DNA of 55,268 nt, filler included, from Catajapyx aquilonaris (taxonomy: Eukaryota): the NCBI GenBank assembly GCA_000934665.2. It is 2 parts of 2 records of this genome, joined end to end, with 100 filler letters (N's around TTAATTAATTAA, not from the genome) between each part and the next. Parts side by side here need not be neighbours in the genome. Positions count along the whole stretch, not along the records: positions 27,731 to 55,268 come from JYFJ02005040.1; 1 more part is not named here. The stretch is one strand, 5' to 3'. The translations under genes were made by a program, and so were the position numbers. The notes under the pieces are model-generated. The model was not told the DNA's origin, ran no database searches, and worked only from the letters and a program-made list of their open reading frames with translations. Every line of letters starts with the position of its first letter. The stretch's first letter is position 1. This document shows, in pieces, positions 5,949 to 48,756 of the stretch.

Positions 5949-8900
5949 TCACTTGAGGATGGGTGTCGGATTGACCACCCTTCCCATGAAAAGGACACTG
6001 CCACTGTGGTAGTCCCAGATGAAGAACAAGAAGGCGTGATCCACTTCGAAGTACTTCTCTCCGAATGTTCCCAGTCGCTCCAGACCTGCTGAGGTCGCAG
6101 CAGTGGCTTCAGCACCTTCTTCGCGAATCTCCAAAGTGGTCCTGGAATCACAAAAATCAAGGTGATAAAATCACATTCGCATATTAAACGCAAAATATGG
6201 GGGACAATTCTGTGATTTACCTAATGTGAATGCAAGACCGAAAATTTTCACTAATTTGCGTTTATGTAAGTGTTGCAGCTGTTGCTTATACAAAACGGTG
6301 AACTCTCAATTTTTAGTTAATAATTAACTTATAGAATTATACTAAATGTGAAGGAAGATATTTATTTCAGAATTTACTTATTGAGTCGGTTGGGAGAAAA
6401 TGCTCACAGCCATTCAAAACAAATGGTTACCATTCAACTGAAAGTAATTTAAATTGAGCAGCAAACCACAAAATATTTTAGAAATACATGTAGCCTATAT
6501 TACAATCATGTGATTGCTGCTTCTCATTGAACTAGCTTCTGAGGTGTACAATTAATTAATTTCTCATAATATGTTCTTTATTTGTATCATAATTTATATA
6601 ATTTATTACCTATCACAATATTTTCTTTTCTCCTTACCCATACTTAGGTATGTGCACTTGAAAAATGAACAATTTTATACATTATACTCACTTGTGTGCA
6701 ATACCGCTGACGTACAGCTTGTCTTCTTCGGATATTGCGCTCAGGTCAGATTTGTCCTGTAGGAAGATGTCGGATAGACCCATTTCACGCAAGGCAGGAA
6801 CCATGTTGGACCTGAACTCTGACTTGAAGCGTGGCAGCCTGATGTTCACTATCTCGTCCTGCAAAGGAATGTTGATTTAAGACCCAGTGTGTAAACAAAT
6901 ATGGATATTAAGCCGAATAAGTTGTAAAAAGCCCAAGAAGCCAATTCAACTATAAAATAATGTGGAATTAATTTTTCAATGTCTAACTGCATATTGTTGT
7001 ACCCTGAACAGTGAACATTCAAAAATATTAATACATATACATATTCATGATTTTTCATTCGCAATATTTGCAGATTAAAAACTAACTTTGAGAGTAGAAA
7101 AGAGAGCCTTGATGTTGTCCGAAGTTAGGTTTCCTTCCAAGGCGGACAGACCCCTGTCCAGGTCATCGGGCAAGAGGATGAAGAGGGACACTCTTCGCCT
7201 CTGGAAGGGCAGTTCCAGGACCCTGCACTCCAGGGACGGGCTGTATCCCAACGGTAGCTTGAATTTCCCGATCATCATCGGTATCTCGAAGCTGAAGTGG
7301 AAAAACTGGGTTTCAGCTCAAAAGATGTACACAAAGAAGAAAATAAAGCGCACACCTGGTTCAAAAAACCATTCATGGAAATCTTTACATCGAAATCGTG
7401 ACTAATACGCATGAGAAAAATCGTACACCTTTTTTTGTCAGCCCAAAACTGCTCGTTCTTAGAAGGCATCAAAACCTGTTGGAGAATCAGCAGGTGTTAA
7501 GGTCTAAGGCGCGTTATGATTAATACCAAGTGTGTGACCTAATTAATGTATATGCCATTGTTAATGAATGGGCCATTTAAAAAAATATTTGCATATCAAT
7601 GTCATCTTGTGCGTTGAATATTACAAAGGTGGGCAGTGAACTAAAATGCTTTGCCATTTTTCTAGTACGGGTCATAGGGCATGAAGAGACCTATTTGTCC
7701 ATTCAATCAGAAAAGAGGAGCAATTCAGTAGCTGACTGTACGGAGAAAGTTGTTCAATCAGTTCTTTCTCTGACTTACTGTTAGAGCAATAAAGTTTAAT
7801 AAACGTGTTTTTATACATGTTGTACCTGAAACTTATAATAAATCAACCGGAACAATGATCACAACTGAAACGTAAACTTTGAGGAACAAAAAATATATAT
7901 ATACGGTAGCACAATATTCTGAGAAAATAATTGGCAGACATAAAACTCCCACTAATTACCGTTTCTTGTAGGTGATGTAAAATAGACCTTTATCGAATGT
8001 CTGGGCTTCATCAAACCGGTACAACCAGGAGGCTTTGAGAGCCAGCGCATTCACCAGCACCAGTCTGGCATCCGGAGGCAGCGGATGAGACACCAGATCC
8101 GTGATCTTCCCATCAGTCTTCTGGCTGCAATTAAAACACAGAAAAATCAACCAACTGGTGAAAATTAGAATGATGACCTCTAGTTGTAAAAGCCAGACAA
8201 AAATAAATAAATAAATAGAAGCTTTGTCCTCTAATATTCTGGGTCGGTCAGGGCCACCAACTCCTGTGATTCCTATCTAAATGGGGAGGGGAAAAAACGG
8301 TTTTTCTTTTCCGACTCCTTCTGACCGAAACGCGAAGGTGTTCAACGTACCTTATCCATCGGTTGATCTGTTCTCTGGCCGATTCCTCGTTGCCTGCGAA
8401 ATCCAGATCGTCCACTGTGCTCTTGTAAAACTCCTGCACGGCCCGCTGGTAGTAAGGAGACAGAGGAACTCCGGTCTGCTTGTACACCTTGTTCGCCATG
8501 TGCAGGATGTCCTGGTAGTAAGATTCTTCGAAGGTCTCCAGGACAGACTAGAGAGAGTGAGAGAAACGCATTGAATTGCTATATAAATATAACATATAAT
8601 AAAGAAGAAAGTTTTTATGTATGTCCGGGCTACCTAACCGACTTCCGGACTACTGATAGCCCTAACCATAGCCACAGGTCGTCATGGCTACGGGATTCTG
8701 AAGTTCCCGTGCGAAGAACGGGTATCCTGCTAGTAATATATATTATACAGTAGACGAATTTGCTTGGATTTGTGTCTTTTTCTTGTCCGAGGTGCAGAGA
8801 GGGGTAATGAGCCATCTGTGTGAGATACATGGCACTGCGTTCACTGGGAGAGCACAGTGTTGCCGTTTTGGGAATGGGTTCACTCTCGCATATTTTAAAT

Positions 8901-30771: not shown

Positions 30772-30974
30772 GAAATAATAAGGGTTAAGATTGACTACTG
30801 TTCGTCCAACCTTATAGTTCAGATGTGTGATAGGTAATGAAACGTGAACTCTTTATCGCAGACGCTGTCATTACATGCGGTGTATTTTTCAGGGCGTGAA
30901 GACTGTCGCAATAACAGTGCCGTACCTGGGCGTTTCCAGATTACGGACAGAGGCATCCCGACAGATACGATTCA

Positions 30975-33413
30975 ATGGCTTCGACTAGAAGTAATCAGTT
31001 GTACTGCAATTATGGCGTAATGCGCAATTTGAATTTGCGTTTTTCGGTCCTTTCAGAAGCCAGGAAACACTGTCCGAGATTCCGAACTCCTTCCGCCGCC
31101 TGGAAGTACTTCCAAAAGATACGCCGCATCAACGAGAGCGGCAAGGCTTTGATCCAGTGCCAGTTGTGCAAGAAGCTGCTGGTTTGTCGCAGGACAACGT
31201 CGATAATGAAGCGACATTTGAATGCGAGACATCAAGGATTGTACGACAGAGCGTCAAAACGGCTGCACAAGCAGGTAAAAATTACGACTAAAGTGCGCCC
31301 TGTAATGTCGCACCGATTAATTACATGTAAACAACATCGGCAAAGTCGTCTCACAAAATTTGTGAGACGACTTTGCCGATGTTGTTTACATGTAATTAAT
31401 CGGTGCGACATTACAAGGCGTACTTTAGTCGTAATTTAATAAATACAGTGTAATTTATGCCGCATTGCTGCAGGCAGAGAAAAACCCAAGTCGGATGGAC
31501 TGCGATGAAGAATCTACAGAAGAGGAAACAGACAACGCTATGGCCATGCAACAATCGGAGACAACTTATTCTTGTAAGTCATTTACGATTGAAAGTACAT
31601 GCAGTGCCATTTAATTTTAATTTTTATAAATAGCAACCAGTGCAATTAAGAAGCATCTGGACAAACTGCTGATTAAGATGATTGCGATTGACCTGCATTC
31701 ATATTCAATCGTCGAGGATGAAGGATTTGGCGAGCTGACGAGAGGATTGGATCCGAAGTATACCCTGCCATCCAGAAAAGCGATCAAGGAAATGATGCAG
31801 CAGGAGTTCGTTTCGTCGTTAGATGTGTGGAAGCGCAAATTGGAGGTTAGTACTGTTGACTAATTAAAGCGAGTGTCCTATTCCAAGTGAACTATTGCAG
31901 GAGGCGGAGTACGTTGCATTGTCAGTAGAAACCTGGACGGGCAGTATGTTGGACCACTACATGGCCGTGAGAGGTCACTTCATCGACTCGGAGAACCAAC
32001 TTCGGGAGTGGACGCTTGACTTTTTTTCGTAAGTGTCATTGTCTCGTTGACATTTTTAAAACAGTAATATTTTTTGGGTTTTTACAGCTACACTGTTTAC
32101 GATATCTCGCAGTATATACAAAACGTGGTGTGCGACTGGAACATTAAAGGCAAGATAACATGTGTTGTGTCTAAAAACTTGGGAGAAGCTGCCAGCCGAC
32201 TGAAGCTCCCAGATGCAGCTTGCTACGCTCATACGCTTAACACAATTGTGATTAAATCGATCGCGTCTATCCCTTCCGTGAATAGCATGATAGGCACGGT
32301 TGATCAAATATTAACACACCTGACATATAATGATTCGGACGCAGCGAAGCTCGAGGGTTGCCTGGACAACTTGGAAGCAGATGTGGACGAATTCCGGGGA
32401 ATGTACGGCGCATATTGGACTTCAAAATACGTTGTTCTGAAGCAGTTCATGGGAGTGAAAGAGCAGCTGTCCACTATGGAACTGCCGGAAGACAATCCAT
32501 TCATGTCACCACGTGAATTGAACATTGCCGAGCAATACTTAACGGCGAGTTATTCAGTTTAGCGCATGAGACAAGTCTAAACCTTTCTAATTTTTCAGGT
32601 TCTGAACCCGTTTTATCTCGTGACCGAGGAATTGCTGGCCGAGAAATCAGCAGGCATCTCCAAGGTGATTCCGATGACTCGGCTGCTCCAGCAGAAAATG
32701 GCCAAGTTCGCCGAGATGCATCAGGAAAGCGAGGGTCAAGACGAAGCCCGTCGCCTTTCGCTAAAACTTAACGAGGAGTTGACTGAAAAATTAAGCAAAA
32801 TGGAGTCGAATAGGTAAAGACATGTCACATTATAACATGGGAAAAAATACACTTGGGAAATTTTTTTTTCAGGGTGTACCGACTTGCCACGCTGCTTGAC
32901 CCACGATTTAAAGCCGTGTTTACAAGCGACAAGATATGCTCGGAGGCTATTAAACAGCTGAAGGAGGAAACGAGGGAGTTGATCAACAGCGATGAAAGTC
33001 GTCGTCAAGTTGAACAAGGATGCGCCGAAGAAAAAGACGCACTCTGGGAAGATCTGGATCGAGAGGTAAACGGGGAGACCTCATTGAATCGGATTGGTGT
33101 TAAAAGCAGATTTCGATTGCAGATCAGTCAACGTGATTCGATGAGCCGAGGAATAAGCGGCGACCTTGAGGTTGAGGCGTACTTGGCTACGAAGAGTATT
33201 CCGCGGACATCGTCGCCTCTGGAGTTTTGGCGGGAACACAAAGGTCAATTCCCGACTCTGAACAGGTTGGCCGCTAAATACTTGTGCGTACCGGCTACAC
33301 ACATACCTCCCAAGCGAATCTTCACGATGGAAGGCGAGCGTTTAGCTCAAAAGAGGGCGAGTCTCACGGAGAAGAACATTCGCATTCGCCTGATGCTGCA
33401 GAATAATTTTTGA
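30975..33413 (+). CDS. ZBED-like protein derived from a hAT transposase (BED finger, dead DDE core, hATC dimerisation domain), 9 exons, ~609 aa
   Basis: Exons 30975-30990, 31057-31274, 31474-31573, 31634-31845, 31901-32028, 32088-32544, 32599-32813, 32873-33065, 33123-33413 (1830 nt, open). BED: WKYF...CQLC...MKRHLNARH; hAT blocks MIAIDLHSYSIVEDEGF, CYAHTLN, LATLLDPRFK, PLEFW...FPTL..LA.KYLCVPAT. Confidence 0.88.
31279..31437. repeat. Near-perfect 159-bp palindrome filling intron 2 of the ZBED-like gene
   Basis: 79-bp arms around position 31358, two mismatches. Confidence 0.95.
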
Positions 33414-34254: not shown

Positions 34255-35525
34255 TCATCGCAGCTCCAGAATGTGCAGGTGTGGATAGCAATCGCGTATC
34301 CATGTATGAGCATCAGTGAGGTCCACGCCGTAGCAGTGCCGCAGCCGGATGTACCGAAGGGCTTGGCACTCATTGATGAAGTCGATCACGCCGGCCGAGG
34401 TGATTCTCTGGCAGTCGAGCAGTGCGATGTCCGTGAGCAGCGGGCAGTTGTCCGCAATGGCATCCAGGCACATGTCGGTCAGTGCCTCGCTCTCGATGAA
34501 GCTCAACCTCTCCAGCCGCCCGACGACTTCCGGCTCGCAGAAATACGCAAGGAGATCGGATCCGGTACGCTCCCAAGTGTCACCCATGCTGAGCTGGCGG
34601 AGGCTGATCAAGTTGCACATCGCCTGGAGGAGGCCGTCCGGAGCGTCCCAGTTTGGCTCAGAGATGTCCAGCTCCTCCAGTCGGCTGCACTGCCCCAGGA
34701 GCACGTACGATTGCGGCAGCCCGAATCGGCCGATACGCAGCTTACGGAGGTGACCCAGGCTCTGGGCCAACACTTCCATCTCCGCGTCCGGGTCGCAGCT
34801 GTCTCCGGACACCCAGCTGAGGGTGACCTCGGATAACCTGGACCACTCCCGCTTGATGGTGCGATCCAGCGGGCGTCGACGGCCGGTGAGTCGGCCCAGG
34901 TCGATCTTCTCCAGCTTGGCACATCCCGCGAAGATGTCCAGTGGATGCTGGAAGCTCGCTGGAATGCTAATGTTGGCCATAACGACCTCCCGCAGTGCTG
35001 TGCACCTGTCAGAAAATGCGTTAGTCACATCGTTGGGTTAGGGAGCCGGTGCGGACTCACTTTTCGGCCACGTGCGCCAGTGGTTCCGAGCGAGCCAGCG
35101 CCATCCCCTGGATGATCAGCACCTCCAGGAAGGGCAATCCGTCCCCAACCTTTTGAATGAGCTGGTCCGGATCCGACATATGTGTGAGCGTGAGCTTCCT
35201 CAGCAGCGGCATCTGCTCCAGCAGGCGCCCGGCCCTCCACTTGCAGACCATCCTGCCGCTCAGCCTGGCCTCCTTCCACAGCCGCCGGTCCAATGCCGCC
35301 CTGCGCCATGAGCGGCACACCAGAGAGGCCGCCAGCAGGTCTCTGGTCGGCAGGTACCAGAACAGCTTCACCTGCATCTCCTCCGGAAGGTGATCAAAGG
35401 TCTGGAAAATCAAAAGGCCCACAAATTAACACCTATTGATGACAATTAAATTATTACTTATGTATTGATTGTTGTCCAGATTTGCTATGCCGCACCTTGT
35501 TATTGCCTGGTACGGCTCCCGCCAT
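34255..35525 (-). CDS. F-box/leucine-rich-repeat protein, 3 exons, ~373 aa
   Basis: Exons 35525-35496 (ACCATGG context), 35401-35061, 35005-34255 (1122 nt). F-box FDHLPEEMQVKLFWYL...ASLVCRSWR...LW; cysteine-containing LRRs (LTDMCLDAIADNCPLLTDIALLDCQRITSAGV). Confidence 0.9.
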
Positions 35526-37817: not shown

Positions 37818-39523
37818 GTGAGGGGCATTGTTCCCCACACATTCTGCAGTGCTTATGGTGCAATTATTAATTATTAATAATTTTTCTGTATAATTTCCCT
37901 TCCACATACACCCTGCATAGATTGCCCAGCCATGTCAGCCTCTGATGGACAAAGTGTTTTGGACATTTTGAGGTCAGGTGGACATGTTGGCAACATATCT
38001 GGCTACCCAGAGCACGAGCCACTGGTGGCAGGGGACACGGTGAGAGGCGTGTGCGTTCTCATTGAAGGAAACCGCATCTGGATGCAGCTGCTGCGGGACT
38101 TGCATCGTCTCGAGAGGCTCATGCGGAGGGTCCAGCGCTGTGGTGCTGCTGGAAACACCTTGAGCCCTAATCTGCTGTATCCTGGAACAGCATGTCTCGC
38201 TCGCTCCTCAAGTGACCGTGCCTGGTATCGCGCAGAGATTGTGTCGGACCCTGCTGCGAAATCAGTACAAGTCATGATGGTGGATTATGGATTCAAGGAA
38301 GAGGTATCCATTGCTGAAGTACTGCCAAAGATGGATGATGATACGCCCAAGACAGCCATACTGATAGAGCTGGATGCCGTTGGAACTATTCCAGACCAAT
38401 GGGCTCCTATGCTGATTGAGAAGGAATTGGACATGAATGTGCTGGAAGTGTCAGACGGCAAATATGTGTCGAATCTGATTCTGAAGGGAAATAAGTGCGT
38501 CAATGGGGCACTTGTCCTTGAGTCGCTCAAGTATGGCTTTCAACGAGATGATAACAACAACCAGAAAGCGACCTTTCCGAGGCCAACAACCAGCTTTGCT
38601 CCATGTCCAGTTTCCGCAAAGGAAGCTGAGGCCATACCCGAGTTTGAGGGACCAGCTTTCTCCGTGGGCGATCACTTTGGAGCGTACATCTCTAACATTG
38701 AGAGTCCAACACTTCTCTGGATTCAGCTGAAGGCCAATGAGGACAAGGTATTTCCCTTGCTTCACCAACCAATGTGCGTTTAATGATGCTTCTTCAACTA
38801 ATTCAGGTGTACCAAGTGGATGCGGCCATGGTAGCCCAGTACATGAACGAGGACGAGGAGATGAGCGAGGGACCTGGGAAGGAAGAGGTTGCTCCTGGGA
38901 GCATCTGGGCTGCCATGACGGAAGACGGCAACTGGCGGAGGGTCAAGGTGGTGTCGTCCACTCCTGCGGGCGTGGAGGTGATGGCTTGCGACTGGGGCGG
39001 TCAGGAGGTTGTTGACATCGCCCTGCTGCGACCCCTGCATTCTTCCATGGATTTGGATGCCATTCCTCCACTGGCCGTTGCCGTTCAGTTGATGCCACCC
39101 ACTGGCGGCGCCTTTCCAGACGATTCAGACGCAACGAAGTATATTGTGGGCGTCACTGAGTTTGGGGAAGCCCTTGTCGACATTGAGGTCATTGCTGTCG
39201 AGGAAGTGATGGTAGTGGGAGCCAAGGTCGGTGTTGTTGACCTTACCCAGTCCCTGCTCGAGTTGGAGCTGTCAGTAGACTCCTGCGCAGATGGTGATGA
39301 ATCAACCAAAGGGGGAAGCGTAGCCATGGACAGCTCTGACAGTTTCTATTCCGCCAAAAGTGGAGTCAGTGACGAAGCCGAGGATGAAGGCGGCACAATT
39401 CCTGTGGATGAAGCCGAGAATGAAGCGGCAGCAGATGGCGCCCCCTCGGTCATCGTTAAGGAAGGAGTGAGGCTTACTAATGAGCATGCGGCTGGGAAGG
39501 TGGGGGCGGTTGAGATTTTTTAA
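37751..39523 (+). CDS. Protein with two extended Tudor domains and an acidic tail, ~536 aa
   Basis: Exons 37751-37817, 37921-38747, 38807-39523 (1611 nt, in frame; downstream ATG 37932 is an alternative). Tudor motifs ACLAR..DRAWYRAEI..VMMVDYG and WAAM.EDGNWRRVKV..VMACDWG; AATAAA at ~39584. Confidence 0.85.
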
Positions 39524-40240
39524 ATGAGAGTTCAACGGCTGTGTTCATATTTATGCTTTTATATTTTTTTGTTACATGTTTAAATAAATGCAAGTTGAAG
39601 TCATCTTGTGGTTGTCTATGTGGGGTGCAAGAGACAGTTTTTTCCCCCATAAAACTGACATAGAAACAGGTTTCATCTTGGAAACTTGAAAATTCAAATT
39701 GCCGCCAGATTGGGTGACGTCACGAGATGACTGCGCGCGCATCGGCCGGTTCCTTTTTAAATTAAACTGTTAAAAACGGTGCATAAAGTTATTAAATAAA
39801 TTAAAAGTCAGATAATTATAATAACAATAGTTTTTTGGGGGGTTTAGGTTGGTACACGACGTTGCAACGCTGTTTCTGATGAGCGTACGTCACGGACGGA
39901 AGAGATGATACACCTTGTACTTGCACTTGTAGGAGGCTCACTTGTACATTACTGTGTAGTTCATACCAGGTGAAATTGTCATATTGGCTGCAACAAACTA
40001 TAATTACACATTATGTTGCATGCGTACTTACATGTATTGCAGCAATAATTGCCATTCATACATGTACATTTCTATGTAGTAGCAGCAATCATTGCACAAA
40101 ATCATGTTGAGTTTCATACTCTATTGCAATTACTAATTCTGATTGTTACGTCAAACTGTTGTTCGTACTCGCATGTACTGCAATTGCTAATTACTAATGA
40201 CATCTCATTCTGACAGGAGGAATTGAAGTAGTGGGCGGCC

Positions 40241-40834
40241 ATGCGGTTTAGATTTTGTGGCGATTTGGACTGCCCCGATTGGGTTCTGGCCGAGATGAGC
40301 ACGTTGTCCCGCCTGACGTCGGTCAAGATGAAGCTGCTCTGTCTCCAGGTGGTCAAGTCGCTTGAAGGGCAGACCATCGACTACGACAAGGTGCGGCAAA
40401 TCACATCGGACGCCAAGTACGACTCGCATGACATCAAGCGCACCGTGGCTGCCCTGAGCTTCATCTTGTCCTCGGCCGTCAAGCACCAGATTGGCGACGA
40501 CGTCCTTCTGAACGAGCTGCAGCAGCTGGGTTTGCCTAAAGAGCACAGCACGTCGCTGTGCCGCACATTCGCAGACCGCTCCCCATCCATGCTGCAGCAT
40601 TTCAGGAGCCAAAGCCTGCGACTCAGCACCTTGAGCGACGTCCAGTGGAGAGTGGACTACATCCTATCGTCCAGCCACTTGGCCGAGGTTAAGGAACCCA
40701 TGGTGCAGCTGCAGGTCGTGTACAGAGCGACCGGCGACAACGATGCGCAATCCACATTTGTCATTCCCATGTCCACCGTCCGGACGTTACTCGCCGGGCT
40801 CAAGCAGGCCCAGTCCATCATGGAGGGACTCTAA
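40241..40834 (+). CDS. COMMD4: COMM domain-containing protein 4, single coding exon, 197 aa
   Basis: Signature N-terminus MRFRFCGDLDCPDWVLAE, ELQQLGLPKEH, COMM-domain WRVDYILSSS; AATAAA at ~40910. Confidence 0.95.
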   Translation: MRFRFCGDLDCPDWVLAEMSTLSRLTSVKMKLLCLQVVKSLEGQTIDYDKVRQITSDAKYDSHDIKRTVAALSFILSSAVKHQIGDDVLLNELQQLGLPKEHSTSLCRTFADRSPSMLQHFRSQSLRLSTLSDVQWRVDYILSSSHLAEVKEPMVQLQVVYRATGDNDAQSTFVIPMSTVRTLLAGLKQAQSIMEGL

Positions 40835-40985
40835 CGGACACACTCTCCTGTAAACATTACGCCAAATATTGTGAAGCAGAGAAATAATGCCTCCAAGTGC
40901 AATTTTGTAAATAAATACAATTAGTAGTACTTGGTAGTACATGAATTTGTTTATTTCAACGTACGGTGGTCATTTCCCATATTTT

Positions 40986-41352
40986 CAGTAAATTAGGAAC
41001 AAATTGAGAACAAAATGATTGTCCATAGGTGGCCTTGCCTCTGTTTCGAGCGCCTCTCGCGGCGTCTTGTTCATACGTCGCTCCTTTTGTTGGCCCTCTG
41101 CAATAATCTTCGGTTGTCTTTCGAACGTGTCCTTAATATTTTCCAAGATGGCGGATTCTTCGGAACGGAAGGATTTGCCCCCGCCGAAGATGGAGGGCTC
41201 CTCGGCGTCCTCTCAAAAGGCATGGTGAACCTCCTTCCCAGGCTGCTGGACGGGCATCTCCTCCTCACGGCCTCCAGGGGACTGTCTCTTGTCCGGCAGC
41301 AGTGGGGGAGGCAAGGGCACTTCCTCCGCGGGGCCGCCTCGCCGGTCAGGGG
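40986..41352 (-). pseudogene. Possible orphan terminal-exon or pseudogene fragment with one in-frame TGA
   Basis: GC-rich island; minus frame PDRRGGPAEEVPLPP...HHAF*EDAEEPSIFGG...LFLIY*, followed by AATAAA at ~40950; no start codon or acceptor found. Confidence 0.25.
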
Positions 41353-41468
41353 AAATTAAAATTAATTTTATTTAATTAAAAAAAAGAACAATAGAAAATG
41401 CAAGGCGGGATAATTAGCCGTAATTACACCCCCCCTAGTGTGCATAGAAAGTGTGAGGTATTTAACTT

Positions 41469-41813
41469 AATAATAATAATAATAATAATAATAATATCCG
41501 GGTAGTGCTTGGCCTTCTCGGCATGTAGCACGGACCTTGTACGATGTACATATTTGGAACCTAATTATTGAAGCTCCCGGGCCCATGGGCAGGATGACAG
41601 GAGGGGATGTGCAAGGTGCAGTGCAATGTCTTAAACGTGGCCATTTTTAGTGAACTCCCCCGGGTGGTTTAGTCTGTGGATATACCACCCGAGACGAACC
41701 CAGAGACGACCCAACTCTGCACGAGATGAAGGGGATGTCCCCGGGTTGGGATCGAACCCAGGACCTTAACATCCGTGGGCGCATACGTTACCGCAGCACC
41801 ACTCCGCCTCCCC
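41469..41813 (-). mobile_element. tRNA-derived SINE (longer copy) with (ATT)n tail
   Basis: A/B boxes at ~41750-41803 (GGTTCGATCC), body to ~41497, then (ATT)n; head shared with 1690-1815. Confidence 0.8.
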
Positions 41814-41866
<53 letters not shown>

Positions 41867-42122
41867 GATACCCCTTGATAAACCTCCTTGGGCCTCTTAG
41901 GGGATCATCTTTTGAATAACCGACTTTAATCCTTGCCTGCGCTGTGATGGATTTTGATTGTGGGAAGAAACGGGAGAACCCCCGAGAAAACCCACGCGAA
42001 CACGGAGAGAACCCATCGAAACTCTATCCACATAAGCGTATACTCTGCCCAACACGGGGATCGAACTCGGGACCTTAGAGGTGGAAGGCTGCGGCGCTAA
42101 CTACTCCGCCACTGTGTCGCCC
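41814..42122 (-). mobile_element. V-SINE-like element with stem-loop tail and (ATT)n
   Basis: tRNA head (TGGCGGAGTAGTTAG, GAGTTCGATCC), then GTTCTCTCCGTGTTCGCGTGGGTTTTCTCGGGGGTTCTCCCGTTTCTTCCCACA resembling the V-domain; 3' GATCCCCT..AGGGGTATCC stem and (ATT)n. Confidence 0.72.
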
Positions 42123-42159
42123 TCGGTATTAAACTAAATATTGCCAGGTCAATCGAGGT

Positions 42160-42248
42160 CAATAATAATAATAATCATCATCATCATCACCATCACGACA
42201 TTTCCCTGTAAGGGGTAGTCAGCGATGACAGGAGCCACAAGCTAACCC

Positions 42249-42302
<54 letters not shown>

Positions 42303-42412
42303 CCGGGTGGAGCAAGGCAGGATAATTAGTAATAATTTATTACACCACAATTAGGGAAAGTATGAGTAAACGCTATTGCAAATTGCATCATCCTGTCAGG
42401 TCAATCATCATG

Positions 42413-42462
<50 letters not shown>

Positions 42463-42600
42463 ATTATTATTATGATACAGCAGGGTGGGGCAGGATTATT
42501 AGTAATAATTTATTACACCGAAATTAGGAGAAGTGCGAGTAAAAGCAAGTGCAAATTGCATCACCTGGCCAGATCTATTATTATTATTATTACCATCACA
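42160..42600. repeat. (AAT)n/(ATT)n/(CAT)n microsatellite cluster with a short direct duplication
   Basis: Seen directly; gcaggat(a/t)attagtaataatttattacacc...tgcaaattgcatca at ~42317 and ~42490. Confidence 0.85.
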
Positions 42601-42692
42601 TGCTGCAATATCCTGTGTTACTTCCACGATGTAAGATAGTGCAGATTGTGCAGTTTATTCTGAAAGCAACTTGCACAGTACGTGTGACATAC

Positions 42693-42820
42693 AAAGGTGC
42701 GTTTACATGTGAGCGGTTTGTAGAGCGAAATCTTCGCCTAGGCTACCAAGTGTTTGAGGCGAAAATTGATTGTTAATTTCAGCCTCAGCGATGATTTCGC
42801 TCGCATGTAAACACACCTTT
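42693..42820. mobile_element. Small MITE upstream of ThrRS
   Basis: aaaggtgcgtttacatgtgagcg ... cgctcgcatgtaaacacaccttt inverted ends. Confidence 0.6.
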
Positions 42821-42932
42821 ATTGTAACGGGGGTTAGTCGCGAATTGCAAGGTCGGGATGTACTTTTGTGCGTGGTTTATTCCGCCCTCTTTTTTTAATT
42901 GTGGTGGGTGTTGTTGCAGTGAGCCGTAAGTG

Positions 42933-45900
42933 ATGGACCCTCTCGATATAGACTCGCTGAACGAGTGGTTGTCGGACCACAGCTACTTGGGTGGGTTCGT
43001 AGCCTCCCCTGCCGATGCCCAGATGAGGCAGAGGCTCCTCACTGCCTTCGGAGGCCAGCTGCCCCCTAGATGCCCTCCCCTCATCCACCTGCAGAGGTGG
43101 TTCTCGCACGTCTGCACCCTCGGACCCTCGCTTGTCAGAGGGGCCACTTCCGCAGGACCTTCCTCTGCCCCACAGGTTGGCAGACCTTTCGTTGGCCAGC
43201 CTCGCTTTTTTACGGACGGGCAAAAGTTACCCATGCTTTGAATTTACGTACAGAACTTTGCTGCATGACATTCCGATATGTACGCCTCTTAATTTTTAGC
43301 GTAATTAATGCTTCGTTTGGTTTGCAATCTGAGGGTGGATTCACCGTAGTAACCATAGTTACTAGTAATTAACTATTTGATGAACCCACCCTCTGCTTAG
43401 CATTCAATGTTAGGCAATGTAATAAGCGATCTGACAAGCTTATTCGCAATAGCAGGTGTTAGAATCCGTAATGAACACCTGCGCATACTTTATGGTGGTA
43501 CGAATCGACCGAGTATCTCATATCTCGTAAATGAAAATATCCAACGTAGAATTTGTTATTAAAGCATGTCGGAAGAATAATTGGAATGGGTTGTAATTTA
43601 TTTTGAATTATGATGCATGGCAATGCGTGTGAAAATTGCATTTTCCGTATGTGTATCTTTGCGGATTCATTTTCCGGTTTCATTTAGCAGGAGGTGAAGA
43701 TGAAGGGAGAGAAAAAGAAGAAGGAAAGCGGCGACTCGGGTCCGGCCTTGACGGAACTGAAGCCATGGCCCGCCTTCATCGATTCCCGGCTTAAACTCTG
43801 GGATGAGTTCAAGACGGAGCGAGAGGCTTTTGTTGCTGCCCAGACGCCAGCGACCATCCAGGTGACCCTCCCGGACGGAGCCAAGGTTGAAGCCGAGTCC
43901 TTCCGAACCAGTCCGTACCAGGTGGCGGCCAAGATAAGCCAGAACCTTGCCGATTCTGTTGTGATCGCTCGGGTTGACGGCGACCTTTGGGATTTGGATC
44001 GACCTCTGGAGAGGGACTGCAAGCTGCAGCTTCTCAAATTCGACGACGACGATGCTAAGCAGGTGAGATGGTTCATAAAAGTACGTACGTTTTAACGCTC
44101 ACTCTGGTCGGTAGGTGTTCTGGCACAGCACTGCACATGTGTTGGGCGAGGCTTTGGAGCGAATGTACGGAGGATGGTTGTGCTACGGGCCGCCGCTAGA
44201 GTCAGGCGGGTTCTACTACGACATGTACTTGGAAGGAAGAGGAGTGTCCGGACAGGACTTTCCGTCTCTTGAAAACATGATGAAGACCATCGTTAAGGAG
44301 AAGCAGCCGTTTGAGCGACTGGAGCTGACCAAAGACCAGCTACTCCGCATGTTCGCCTACAATCCGTTCAAGGTTGGTGAACACTTAACGTCTGACTATT
44401 GATATGAGAATGTCTCTCGTTAATTATAGGTGCGGATTCTAAACGAGAAGGTTAACACCCCGACTACAACTGTGTACCGCTGTGGTCCGTTGATCGATCT
44501 GTGTAGAGGTCCGCATGTGCGCCACACTGGAAAACTGAAGGCCTTGAAAGTGACCAAGAACTCGGCCTCGTACTGGGAAGGAAAGGCTGAAGCCGAGTCG
44601 CTGCAGCGGGTGTACGGGATGAGCTTTCCCGATCCGAAGCAGATGAAGGAATGGCAGCGTTTGCAGGAAGAAGCGGCAAAGAGGGACCATCGGAAGCTCG
44701 GGAAGGAGCAGGAGCTGTTCTTTTTCCATGAGCTGTCTCCAGGATCATGCTTTTTCCAGCCGAAAGGAGCGCATGTGTACAACAAGCTGCTGAACTTGAT
44801 GCGGGAGGAATACAGGAAGAGAGGATTTCACGAGGTCATCAGTCCGAACATGTATAACGCCAAGCTCTGGCAGACCTCGGGACATTGGGATCATTATGCG
44901 GTCAGTTTCACTTCCTCAATGTTGATCCGCCATTAATCCGTTTCATCCACAGGATAATATGTTCTCGTTTGAAGTGGAGAAAGAGCGTTTCGCTCTGAAG
45001 CCCATGAACTGTCCCGGCCACTGTTTGATGTTCTCGCATCGAACCCGCTCCTGGCGAGAGCTCCCGTTGCGACTAGCCGACTTTGGGGTTCTCCATCGCA
45101 ATGAGCTTTCCGGCGCGTTGACCGGACTGACCAGGGTCCGTCGGTTCCAACAGGACGACGCTCACATCTTTTGCGCTCCGGAGCAGATTGGCTCGGAGAT
45201 GAAAGGGTGCCTCGAGTTCCTCGGAGACGTTTACGGCGTGCTCGGATTCGAATTTGATCTGGTGCTGTCGACCAGGCCGGAGAAGTTCCTCGGTGAGGCC
45301 GCGGTTTGGGATCAGGCCGAAGAGCAGCTTAGAAAAAGCTTAGATTCGTTCGGGAAGCCATGGAAGATAAATCCAGGTGAGATCATAAGCAGGGAGCTTA
45401 ATACTACATAAGAGGCGCAAACTTCGGTCAGCGCCATTGATTTCCGCGTCTCTCTGTTTGGGGCCGTTGCCAAGGCTGGCGGCCATTTTGAAGTGTGGGT
45501 AAGGCCAACGAGGTATAAATAGGGTACAGGGTAAAATAGGGTCCGCCATCTTTGATGGTTTTGGCGGACCCTATTTTTTGCCTGTACCCTATTTATACCT
45601 CGTTGGCGTTCCACACACTTCAAAATGGCCGCCAGCCTTGGCAACGGCCCCAAACAGAGAGACGCGGAAATCGAATGTTTGCGCCTCTTATGTAGTATAT
45701 GCTCCCTGATGTAAGTGCGTACATGATCGGTTGATGTTTATAATAATTATCCGCAGGTGACGGTGCATTTTACGGCCCCAAGATCGACATAACCGTAAGA
45801 GACGCACTGCAGCGGCCGCATCAGTGTGCGACAATCCAACTAGATTTCCAGCTACCGAATCAGTTTGATCTCGGCTTTGTTGCGGAATCAGGCGAACGCA

Positions 45901-46376
45901 AACGGCCTGTCATGATCCATCGTGCGATTTTGGGTTCGGTGGAGCGCATGATCGCAATTCTGACCGAGTCGTGCGGCGGGAAGTGGCCCTTCTGGATATC
46001 TCCTCGGCAAGCAATTGTCGTGCCTGTGGGACCCTCACTGGACGGTTACGCTGTGGACGTGAAGGAGCAGCTGTACAGGGCCGGATTTGAAGTGGAAGTG
46101 GACGTGGATCCGGGCGACACACTTAATAAGAAGATCAGAAATGCACAGCTTGCGCAATTCAATTTTATCCTAGGTCAGTATCGCCGACTCGGTTTGCGGT
46201 TCTGTCGTTAACAGCCTCTCGTTTCAGTGGTAGGCGACCGAGAGAAGGCGTCGGGAACTGTCAATGTCCGCACCCGCGACAACAAAGTGCATGGAGAGCA
46301 CACTTTGGCTGCGTTGGAAGCTCGCTTCAAGCAACTGCAAGAAGGACATGTCCTCAATGCCGAGGATGACTTCTGA
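42933..46376 (+). CDS. TARS1: Threonyl-tRNA synthetase (cytosolic type) with a putative N-terminal EF1B-beta/GST-C-like exon, ~777 aa
   Basis: Exons 42933-43175 (putative), 43691-44062, 44115-44372, 44430-44900, 44953-45376, 45757-46173, 46228-46376 (2334 nt). TGS (WDLDRPLE), editing HSTAH and DLCRGPHV, catalytic [42 protein letters not shown], anticodon-binding domain. Core is certain; the exon-1 join is inferred. Confidence 0.95.
45390..45708. mobile_element. Almost fully palindromic MITE (CAGGGAGC...GCTCCCTG) in a ThrRS intron
   Basis: ~150-bp inverted arms; second family copy at 51707-51997. Confidence 0.9.
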
Positions 46377-47092
46377 ATCCGCCGCTGAATGCAAGCCTTT
46401 TCAATTTCTCCCCAGTGTGTTTGGTTGTGTGGGCTGGCCTATGAATAAAAAAAATAAATTTGAAATTGAAATCTAGGGTTAATTTCTGCTAACCGCTCGC
46501 CTCCTGTTGAATAATGCGCAACCGGCTGAATTCGCATTCGTTGCGCCTGTTTGTTCCATGTTGACTAGTGAAACGGTGCGAACGTCACGACATGCGCAAT
46601 GCATACGGACCCTGACCTGAATTTTGGCGCATTTTTAATGATGTTTTGATCGCATTACCATGAACTAGTTTTTCGACCTTGAGTCGGGAGATGTTTCCCT
46701 TCAGATGTGTCTAGAGGTTTCTGTAACTTCAATCAAACGCAGATGACAGGTGACGAAACGAATGATTTTATTATATACAGTTCAATGAGGCAATACAATT
46801 CCCTTTTTATCTGTTTATTGATTGACAATATCTGAGTGTTGAGCAAAATGGAAAGATAATCTCGCTGATAAAAATGGGTTACGTAAAAAAAAATTAATGG
46901 AAGGGTACGTTCTCTCGAGAGGTTCGCCACTTGTGTAATCATACCTTTGCAAAGAAATGTGTCTATTAACACATTGGATTGTGATTGAGTGTACAGTGTA
47001 TGATGTAATTAATCGGCCTTTCTTGCAGAGAAATTGCGATATGAGCACACTTGAAAATTGAGTGGGAAATCCCTTGATGTTGGAAAATTGGA

Positions 47093-48470
47093 CTAACTGC
47101 TACAAAGCAGTTGTTGGGATGCGTCCGCAGCTTCTAGGAAAGAGCTGTTCCGGCGTCTTTTCAGCAGGATGGACTGTCGGTATCCGCATGCGAAACCACG
47201 TGTTCCGTCGGGGCCTCGAGGGAGACGGATGACATTGTCTGGAAGTGTGACTCCAGCCGTTGCGACCCCCAGAAGCGGACTGAGACGACCGGCTCCATCC
47301 AGCGAGTCGATGTCGCCGGTGCTTCCATTGCTGGTGCTGTCACGTCGGGCTGCCAGCAACCGCCGTTGCATCCATGGACTCCGGCTGCCTTCCGAGACGC
47401 TTGCGGATTTGTGGCGGGGCATCACGGGAGCTTCCGAGGTCCAACGAGACTCGGTTGCAAGAGATGCAACGCTGTGTCTGTGGTGCGGGCGTGATGGTGA
47501 GAGCATGGACGGTGGCGGGGGCGTTCTCGACCTGAATGTTGGGGATGCAATGAGCCCCATTGTAGCCGCTGTCGACGTAGCGCGGCGCCGGCCTCCCTTG
47601 ATAGCGACCGGTTCTGACGCAGGCGGCGTCTTCACCATCGCTGGCATTGACTCACGGCGCTTCGACTTATTGGTTGGTACCACAAACAACCGGACGCCCA
47701 AGTCCGATGCGGCTCTGACCGCTTTGGCTGCCGCATCCGGCGCATCAAACTCGGCCATTGCGCACAGCTCGGCGCCAAGCTGCGGAAACCTGGATGCCAA
47801 TGGCCGCAACTCCTCGGGTGTTGACGACCCTGGATGGATAAGCCGGACTAGTGACAGGTTGCCAAATGGCGCTAGGAGTTCGGCCACGGCGTCGACAGCG
47901 CCGCGCTCCGGAGGCAACCCCAGCGCCAAGACCAACCTGGACGGAGGAGACGACGGGGGTGAAGACGACAGCGACTCATTCGATCCGGAGATGGGCATGG
48001 CCTCCAGCTCCGGAGAAAGGGGCTCCAAGCGACGCACCTTGGTTCCCTCGGAGTTGACCTCAAGGATGGTCGAGTACTTCCGGACGGCATTAGCCACCTG
48101 TAACGCATCCATATTAGGTCGAGCTCACATAATTATGTATAATAATTTCAATTACCTGCGTCCAGTCCCGGCAGAGATGCTTGACCTTCTTGAAGGAAGC
48201 GACCAGCTTGAGTGAGACGTAGCCGTCCCTTGCCTTCTTGACGTGCTTTCTGAGGAATGCGTCTTTAGACAGGTGGTCGTTGGACAGGTAGTCCTCCACT
48301 TGGGCTGCTATCCGTCGCCCCGAGGCTGCCTCTTCGCCTCTTCCCGTCTCGTCAGCCTCACACCCCGAGTCGTCTGGAGGTGTCGATGGACGTGTCGTCG
48401 GAGGCGTCGGAGGTGTAGTCGACGTCACAGACTCCTCCTGGTCGTCTTCTGGCTCGTCCACCTCCGCCAT
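47093..48470 (-). CDS. LARP6: La-related protein 6 (La motif, RRM, C-terminal LSA/SUZ-C), ~439 aa
   Basis: Exons 48470-48156, 48097-47093 (1320 nt). KDAFLRKHV..GYVSLKLVASFKKVKHL..KVRR, SPWMQRR, IRLPRGPDGTRGF. Confidence 0.92.
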
Positions 48471-48756
48471 CTCGTCATATCTGCAATCATATCTGAAACA
48501 TAATATTTATTGCTCTTTAAAAAAATCATGCAATAGACTCGAACTGTTGACAAAAAAATGTGCAAAGTAATGTTTACAATACTAATTAAAGTGTAGTGTT
48601 TGCAGTTGTGGTACCAAAGCAAATGAGGAAAACTTGTTGCAGTTCTTCACAATACGTAATAAGAGTGTGACATTATTGTGAATTATTGTATATTATCCAA
48701 TAATTTTTCCAATAATTATAATACCGGTATCATATAATATTATATATATATATATA

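Follow-up and report, generated by a model that had tools for sequence, protein, structure and literature searches.

A candidate eEF1B-α-type docking module ahead of threonyl-tRNA synthetase in Catajapyx aquilonaris

Docking domains related to glutathione S-transferase (GST) on aminoacyl-tRNA synthetases underlie both the multi-synthetase complex and the complex of valyl-tRNA synthetase (ValRS) with the elongation factor eEF1B. In 2000, Kim et al. reportedly described an isoform of human CysRS that acquires an ‘elongation factor-associating domain’ by alternative splicing, a module said to raise its binding to EF-1-γ. The occurrence of GST-related appendages on ValRS, MetRS, EPRS and scaffold proteins is treated as textbook knowledge (PMC4394549), and the ValRS-eEF1B complex is thought to hand aminoacyl-tRNA directly to eEF1A (PMC9458455; PMC4394549). 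In one review, the docking domain of ValRS is restricted to Deuterostomia and threonyl-tRNA synthetase (ThrRS) goes without mention (PMC4394549); the question why ValRS alone attaches to eEF1B is posed in a structural paper on human eEF1B (PMC9458455). Appendages of other kinds are known on ThrRS itself, since the N-terminal extension of TARSL2 brings this protein into the multi-synthetase complex and interacts with ArgRS (PMC6794377), and the UNE-T region of TARS1 binds 4EHP (PMC6430810). Here we analyze a ThrRS gene of Catajapyx aquilonaris (assembly GCA_000934665.2) together with a coding exon ahead of it, exon 1, that encodes a small module resembling the N-terminal domain of eEF1B-α. The DNA analyzed, called the window below, is a stretch of 55,268 nt made of two joined parts, of which positions 27,731-55,268 come from JYFJ02005040.1 and contain this gene.

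We propose that the locus is one ThrRS gene in which a choice of 5′ ends produces a long isoform with an eEF1B-α-type docking module and a short form that is the ordinary enzyme; we assign this reading a probability of about 0.7. When exon 1 is spliced to exon 2, translation would start at 42933 and yield a 777-aa ThrRS, in which a three-helix module of ~65 residues, a flexible linker and a Lys-rich stretch would be followed by the TGS, editing, catalytic and anticodon-binding domains. When another leader is used, translation would start at 43700 and yield an ordinary ThrRS of 693 aa that would act as free enzyme. Held on its flexible linker, the module would seat the long ThrRS on eEF1B-γ, next to eEF1A recycling, and a fraction of ThrRS would reside on the eEF1B complex much as ValRS does in vertebrates. 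That ThrRS can sit on eEF1B-γ is the simplest reading because the protein begins with a homologue of the eEF1B-α N-terminal domain. The parts of this proposal differ in strength: comparative evidence strongly supports the attachment of the module to ThrRS, a docking function is plausible, and eEF1B-γ has about an even chance of being the partner.

The long ThrRS resembles each of the systems above in part. As in the vertebrate ValRS-eEF1B complex, an N-terminal GST-related appendage would tie a synthetase to eEF1B, but ValRS uses a full GST-like domain that binds eEF1B-β/δ, whereas the ThrRS module is a short eEF1B-α-type piece with eEF1B-γ as its expected partner. In the long ThrRS, as in the human CysRS isoform, an optional exon provides a synthetase with a module related to EF-1 and GST, and the higher EF-1-γ binding reported for the CysRS isoform is the mechanism proposed here; CysRS differs in being a class I enzyme of another lineage. 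The TARS3/TARSL2 extension and UNE-T are, like the exon 1 module, N-terminal appendages of ThrRS, and both mediate protein contacts, but their sequences are unrelated to it. The closest relative of the module itself is the N-terminal domain of eEF1B-α, which is equally long, shares its hallmark residues (L..L...SY..G...S.AD...RW..HI) and has three helices like those predicted for exon 1. In eEF1B-α an acidic region and the EF1_GNE exchange domain come after this domain, whereas here the module is followed by a complete ThrRS. The domain that the first-pass annotation of this DNA called the eEF1B-β N-terminus is that of eEF1B-α in current naming, and is listed as EF-1-β in the Protein Data Bank (PDB; entry 5DQS chain D).

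The identity of the module was examined by sequence, profile and structure comparison. The exon 1 peptide alone, compared with PDB sequences, matched 5dqs_D (human EF-1-β residues 11-63) with an E-value of 1.9e-4. A profile of six modules also had this chain as its best match, at E 6e-14; lower down came AIMP3 (1e-6), then delta-class GSTs and the GST domain of EPRS (E 0.05). An AlphaFold2 model of exon 1, made from a 13-row alignment, contains three helices at approximately residues 6-15, 26-39 and 48-62. When this model was aligned exhaustively to 48,161 chains, 5dqs_D ranked first, with a root-mean-square deviation of 2.8 Å over 63 residues and a Z-score of 5.7 that is within the range where common helical arrangements can score, the model itself having a moderate mean predicted local distance difference test value of 69.6. 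The next structural matches, at Z 5.0-5.2, were the Arc1p N-domain, GSTs, the yeast GluRS N-domain and AIMP3. In addition, the modules and oyster eEF1B-β show little or no variation at residues L9, S17, Y18, D28, R55, W56 and H59. The eEF1B N-terminal, GST-C-like identity given to exon 1 by the first-pass annotation was borne out by the kind of profile search that it had suggested, and the structure prediction, with its modest Z-score, agrees with the sequence evidence; exon 1 almost certainly encodes an eEF1B-α-N-type module.

Similarity beyond chance was also found in larger collections. Compared with 1.84 billion representative proteins, exon 1 gave three matches at E ≤ 0.001 (P0001, P0003 and P0002). 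The best (P0001, E 8e-12) is a 183-aa protein with two tandem modules and 40% identity to the exon 1 module, and P0003 is a 104-aa, module-only protein (E 8e-4); P0002 (772 aa) was set aside as unrelated, its match being confined to a short internal repeat. A protein-atlas look-up with the module returned short Arc1p_N_like and GST_C clusters. Since profile matches to a profile's own rows are circular, leave-one-out runs were made: a profile without the window sequence recovered exon 1 at E 9e-11, and one built only from four other ThrRS modules recovered it at E 2.5e-9. The 183-aa proteins P0001, P0134 and P0135 are stand-alone tandem modules, each module standing after a basic Ser/Leu/Lys-rich stretch, and one member of the P0001 cluster is named ‘glutathione S-transferase’ by one source.

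The same profile alignments define how much of the GST fold is present. Against GST-type structures, the alignment always fell on the final helices of the C-terminal subdomain and covered about 55-65 residues (AIMP3 residues 107-164; delta-class GST residues 134-197). Exon 1 therefore encodes a three-helix piece of the GST-C fold of ~65 residues and not a full GST-like domain, and on this point the earlier view of a GST module of the ValRS, MetRS or EPRS kind has to be revised. This bears on the main alternative as to the partner, that the module docks the long ThrRS to the multi-synthetase complex instead, through the GST-like domain of AIMP2, AIMP3, EPRS or MetRS. AIMP3 is indeed the next PDB match of the profile after 5dqs_D, the EPRS GST domain following far lower, and the Arc1p N-domain, the yeast GluRS N-domain and AIMP3 are all among the next structural matches. 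The match to the eEF1B-α N-domain is, however, eight orders of magnitude better than that to AIMP3. The known GST-GST interfaces of the multi-synthetase complex are formed by the N-terminal subdomain and the remaining helices of GST-like domains, and the module is without that subdomain and most of those helices. We consider docking to the multi-synthetase complex improbable on these grounds, and docking to eEF1B the better account of the module.

The possibility that exon 1 belongs to an eEF1B gene was addressed within the window. The EF1_GNE domain (PF00736) was found in none of the 79 open reading frames scanned out of 92 with at least 95 codons (the other 13 overlap the ThrRS gene), and a tblastn comparison of oyster eEF1B-β with the window gave nothing at E ≤ 1. 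With the exchange domain thus absent from the window, exon 1 does not belong to an EF1B gene, in agreement with the first-pass observation that the rest of such a gene was not visible.

Exon 1 occupies 42933-43175 on the plus strand, and its 81 codons encode the three-helix module and a short Ser/Ala/Pro linker. It begins with the ATG at 42933, just 3′ of an in-frame TAA (42927-42929), and ends in phase 0 at CAG/GTTGGC (43175/43176), as had been read from the sequence at first pass; the last residues of its peptide are ...SSAPQ. Immediately upstream, the plus strand at 42911-42921 contains an acceptor-like ttgttgcag/tg and an initiator-like GCAGTG. The transcript-like contig that covers exon 1 starts within this stretch, at 42919, and exon 1 may be either a cassette exon or a first exon. 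The proposed intron 1 (43176-43690, plus strand, 515 bases, 39% GC) would run from the CAG/GTTGGC donor to a TAG/CAG acceptor. This acceptor reads TAG/CAG/GAG, a tandem NAGNAG, and exon 2 starts at 43688 and 43691 are both in frame with exon 1, in keeping with the acceptor previously placed at 43690 and its in-frame alternative at 43687. Another GTTGGC donor in the same phase is found at 43190; that at 43175 is preferred for its exon-side CAG and for its agreement with the position of the junction in homologues.

The rest of the gene, all on the plus strand, is supported by contigs of a public run (run X1) that covers the region and is not on record as RNA; its contigs were examined over 42400-46600. 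These contigs behave as transcripts, since five GT..AG introns are skipped. A contig of 2153 bases extends from 43689 to 46436 and joins exons 2-7. Exon 2 (43691-44062) encodes the Lys-rich linker, the ATG at 43700 that would give the 693-aa short form, and the TGS domain (PF02824, E 6e-16; 58.6 bits against a Pfam cut-off of 22.2). Exon 3 (44115-44372) is bounded by run X1 joints 44060 to 44113 and 44370 to 44428 and ends at an AAG/GTTGGT donor, whose use had been noted at first pass and is seen here in the skipping of 44373-44429. Exon 4 (44430-44900) encodes the second additional domain/editing region (tRNA_SAD, E 2.6e-13), exon 5 (44953-45376) the first part of the class II core (tRNA-synt_2b, E 1.4e-28), and exon 6 (45757-46173) the second part of the core and the start of the anticodon-binding domain (tRNA-synt_2b, E 1.4e-15; HGTP_anticodon, E 1.1e-9), each with run X1 joints. 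Exon 7 (46228-46376) encodes the rest of the anticodon-binding domain up to the TGA stop (HGTP_anticodon, E 4.5e-4), and the contig continues past it.

The downstream gene is thus a complete cytoplasmic-type class II ThrRS, with TGS, tRNA_SAD, tRNA-synt_2b and HGTP_anticodon in order by Pfam. Joined by coordinate, the seven exons amount to 2334 bases and 777 codons, with the sole stop at the end. The ThrRS core of the model is 68-73% identical to animal ThrRS; its top matches are from arthropods and none of them is close, so that the organism has no near relative in the protein collection. GC content is 53-63% in the exons and 35-54% in the introns, and GC at the three codon positions is 0.60/0.54/0.74 in exon 1 versus 0.60/0.38/0.66 in the remaining exons, the third position being highest in both. 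A second, 225-base contig of run X1 matches 42919-43143 without differences and lies within the exon 1 region, with the ATG included. Exon 1 is a real, transcribed coding exon for an eEF1B-α-type module.

The attachment of this exon to ThrRS can be judged by comparison with other animals. With exon 2 as query, 138 ThrRS were found at E ≤ 1e-5, and among the best 120 of these, a phmmer search with exon 1 detected the module in three (P0093, which is Cloeon dipterum ThrRS isoform X1, 2e-6; P0011, 4e-4; P0004, 7e-4). This agrees with the earlier remark that a typical TARS1 lacks such an appendage. The companion remark, that TARS3 uses a different extension, also holds, since the N-terminal extension of the TARS3-like proteins P0016, P0088 and P0040 looks like a coiled coil, and the module profile, run against 147 proteins, matched none of them at E ≤ 0.01. 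A word-index search of longer proteins with exon 1 alone found none at E ≤ 0.01 among 111 candidates, and the alignment-based profile search succeeded, with 12 matches among longer proteins. These comprise the four ThrRS already in the profile; the ThrRS of Frankliniella fusca, Meganyctiphanes norvegica (partial) and Neocloeon triangulifer (isoform X1, and X2 weakly); and isoform X1 of AsnRS from Homarus and Macrobrachium, oyster eEF1B-β and one MetRS. The Ciona ThrRS (P0101) was recovered at E 2e-14 by a profile built without the Ciona row.

These proteins share the layout of the long form as well as the module. In blastp comparisons, the 777-aa model is collinear end to end with P0004, P0011, P0124 and P0093 (for example, model 4-777 with P0004 1-795, and model 6-777 with P0093 12-791). 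Local alignment of the N-termini agrees, placing module, linker, Lys-rich stretch and TGS domain in the same order, and the junction falls in the same linker: the isoform-specific part of the Cloeon protein ends at ...AAAPQ/MVNEA, and the window sequence reads ...SSAPQ/EVKMKG. The source contigs of P0004 and P0011, at 2.6-2.7 kb, are roughly as long as an mRNA would be, which makes it probable that relatives have the fused form as mRNA. Because full-length ThrRS of other animals have the module at the same place and are collinear with the model, exon 1 is considered to belong in front of ThrRS, and it is very probably spliced onto it.

The module is an alternative part of the protein in three animals. 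In Cloeon, isoform X1 carries the module, X2 a basic, presequence-like leader and X3 a short one; Frankliniella occidentalis has the module-bearing X1, the short X3 and the presequence-like P0010; and Ciona has X1/X2 with the module, X3/X4 that are presequence-like and the short X5. In all three, the rest of the protein is common to the module-bearing and module-less isoforms. The composition of the presequence-like leaders suggests that they probably send ThrRS to mitochondria. For the window, a related suggestion is that exon 1 serves mainly in organelle targeting or regulation, for example through a start at the internal Met at 43023 that would create a mitochondrial presequence. The 51 residues from this Met to 43175 contain five basic and no acidic residues, a presequence-like composition, and the alternative 5′ exons of Cloeon, Frankliniella and Ciona make dual targeting from one ThrRS gene look usual. 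In these three animals, however, module and presequence-like leader are encoded by separate exons, and in the window the first ATG, at 42933, has a purine at -3 and G at +4 and is included in the run X1 contig. A targeting role for exon 1 is accordingly the least probable of the readings considered, and very unlikely. A scan of 59 in-phase ATG-to-GT segments over 40850-43690 yielded no convincing candidate for a separate presequence exon.

Several observations, in addition to the Z-score range and moderate model confidence given above, weigh against the proposed long isoform or the assignment of its module. A Foldseek search of the exon 1 model against the PDB gave no match at E ≤ 0.001, and the best Pfam model for exon 1, Arc1p_N_like of the GST_C clan, scored a sub-threshold 15.4 bits against a cut-off of 27. 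The window module is divergent: with 17-29% identity to other ThrRS modules, it is no closer to them than to oyster eEF1B-β (31%), and it is closer to P0001 (40%). It also has no SFG..FP motif, which most of the others show after their final helix. The position of the ThrRS exon thus suggests common descent, which the sequence does not prove, and the module may have been acquired independently. No joint between exons 1 and 2 (43175 to 43688 or 43691) was seen among the run X1 joints and pieces listed, in which 43144-43688 is uncovered, a blank that is no evidence of absence. Finally, the word depth of the exon 1 contig is 3.3 compared with 36.8 for the long contig, which starts at the exon 2 acceptor.

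Some of these points can be read in other ways. The Pfam Arc1p_N_like model also fails on genuine oyster eEF1B-β (23.3 against 27) and on all other ThrRS modules, so the GST_C-clan models appear to cover this short module poorly. Contig ends and depths are weak indicators of expression, and both the depths and the start of the long contig fit a situation in which the form without exon 1, carrying a different leader, is the commoner one. To judge from the way such assemblies break, the start of the long contig at 43689 may mark a branch among at least two partners upstream with different bases at the third place before the joint, given that a C stands there in exon 1 and in the unspliced intron alike. 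Spliced-leader trans-splicing was considered as a cause of the contig break at exon 2, and nothing was found in its support. Since no listed contig bridges exons 1 and 2, we infer their splicing from reading frame, splice signals and the collinearity of homologues.

The same observations could instead indicate that exon 1 is not part of the ThrRS gene, being either a separate small gene (~103 residues, if read on as far as the stop at 43239-43241) or a relic in decay that is upstream of it by chance. Stand-alone proteins consisting only of the module exist, in the form of the 183-aa P0001 cluster that contains the best match of exon 1 and the 104-aa, read-through-like P0003, and no exon 1-exon 2 joint was seen among the run X1 contigs listed. 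On the other hand, the frame, the CAG/GTTGGC donor and the in-frame acceptor fit exactly, and a GTTGG donor is demonstrably used in the same gene. In at least seven other species, long ThrRS forms have the module in this place, and the hallmark residues of exon 1 are all intact. In a relic, moreover, an open frame of 81 codons, enriched in GC at the third position, would not be expected to persist. An independent gene or relic is therefore an unlikely source of exon 1, and we favor its use as an optional first part of ThrRS.

The architecture is already present, unremarked, in public gene models, which tempers the finding. The same N-terminal module stands ahead of a Lys-rich linker and TGS domain in the long ThrRS models of Cloeon dipterum (XP_065337591.1) and Neocloeon triangulifer (isoform X1), and the same layout is found in those of Frankliniella occidentalis (XP_026279598.1), F. 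fusca, Meganyctiphanes norvegica (partial) and Ciona intestinalis (isoforms X1/X2). These proteins are 64-65% identical to the window model in alignments that extend from end to end. The module is isoform-specific in these public genes, as proposed here, but the models differ in being named only ‘threonine--tRNA ligase’, with no domain annotation. No description of an EF1B- or GST-type module on ThrRS was found in the full-text literature, a search outside of which most subscription journals lie. The first-pass annotation had attributed the appendage to this lineage and had asked whether the architecture was common and already described. The appendage is present here, as claimed, but mayflies, thrips, krill and Ciona have it in their ThrRS models as well; and the architecture exists in public gene models, but no paper describing the module on ThrRS was found. 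The module thus spans insects, crustaceans and a tunicate. If the docking proposal is correct, other animals join other synthetases to the elongation-factor complex through a handle of another kind, and do so optionally, via alternative 5′ exons.

Related modules are also found on other synthetases. In isoform X1 of decapod AsnRS (P0127, Homarus americanus; P0128, Macrobrachium rosenbergii), the module lies at approximately residues 79-149, inserted after the first ~70 residues and inside the N-terminal AsnRS_N region, and is recognized by Pfam as Arc1p_N_like (E 1e-5) and GST_C (4e-4). The 104-aa protein P0003 looks like this decapod AsnRS module exon read on into an intron. In a MetRS (P0130, 869 aa), the profile matched residues 14-71, at the extreme N-terminus, with E 2e-11 locally and 8e-4 in the wide search; this could be a short module or part of a full GST-like domain. 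A broader and decidedly tentative idea is that a small eEF1B-α-type exon module has been placed on several synthetases (ThrRS, decapod AsnRS and possibly MetRS) in pancrustaceans and tunicates, where it might build an optional, lineage-specific and splicing-regulated channeling complex of synthetases with eEF1B by mimicking the handle through which eEF1B-α holds eEF1B-γ. Were this so, such a complex would take the place of the vertebrate ValRS-eEF1B complex, and it might compete with eEF1B-α for its site.

The ThrRS gene is flanked, by Pfam assignment, by a COMMD gene (40232-40831, plus strand) and a La/SUZ-C gene on the opposite, minus strand (47096-48506). Between the COMMD gene and exon 1, the interval 41400-42640 contains (ATT/AAT)n microsatellites interleaved with fragments that resemble tRNA-derived short interspersed nuclear elements (SINEs). 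Among these fragments, GGTTCGATCCC-like motifs occur on the reverse strand near 41730-41770 and 42050-42075, and ARAGORN called no tRNA genes in the SINE-like region 41300-42950. Hairpins like those of miniature inverted-repeat transposable elements are found in ThrRS intron 5 (45401-45698, with 98-base arms that are 95% complementary and 22-base perfect outer arms) and upstream of exon 1 (42693-42820, with 23-base arms); summed run X1 depth is high at both because the contigs link these copies to other loci. Elsewhere in the window, Pfam identified a hAT-type transposase gene with zf-BED and hAT dimerization domains (30915-33410, plus), a Tudor-domain gene (37881-39520, plus), an F-box/LRR gene (34258-35425, minus) and a serpin gene (7959-8547, minus).

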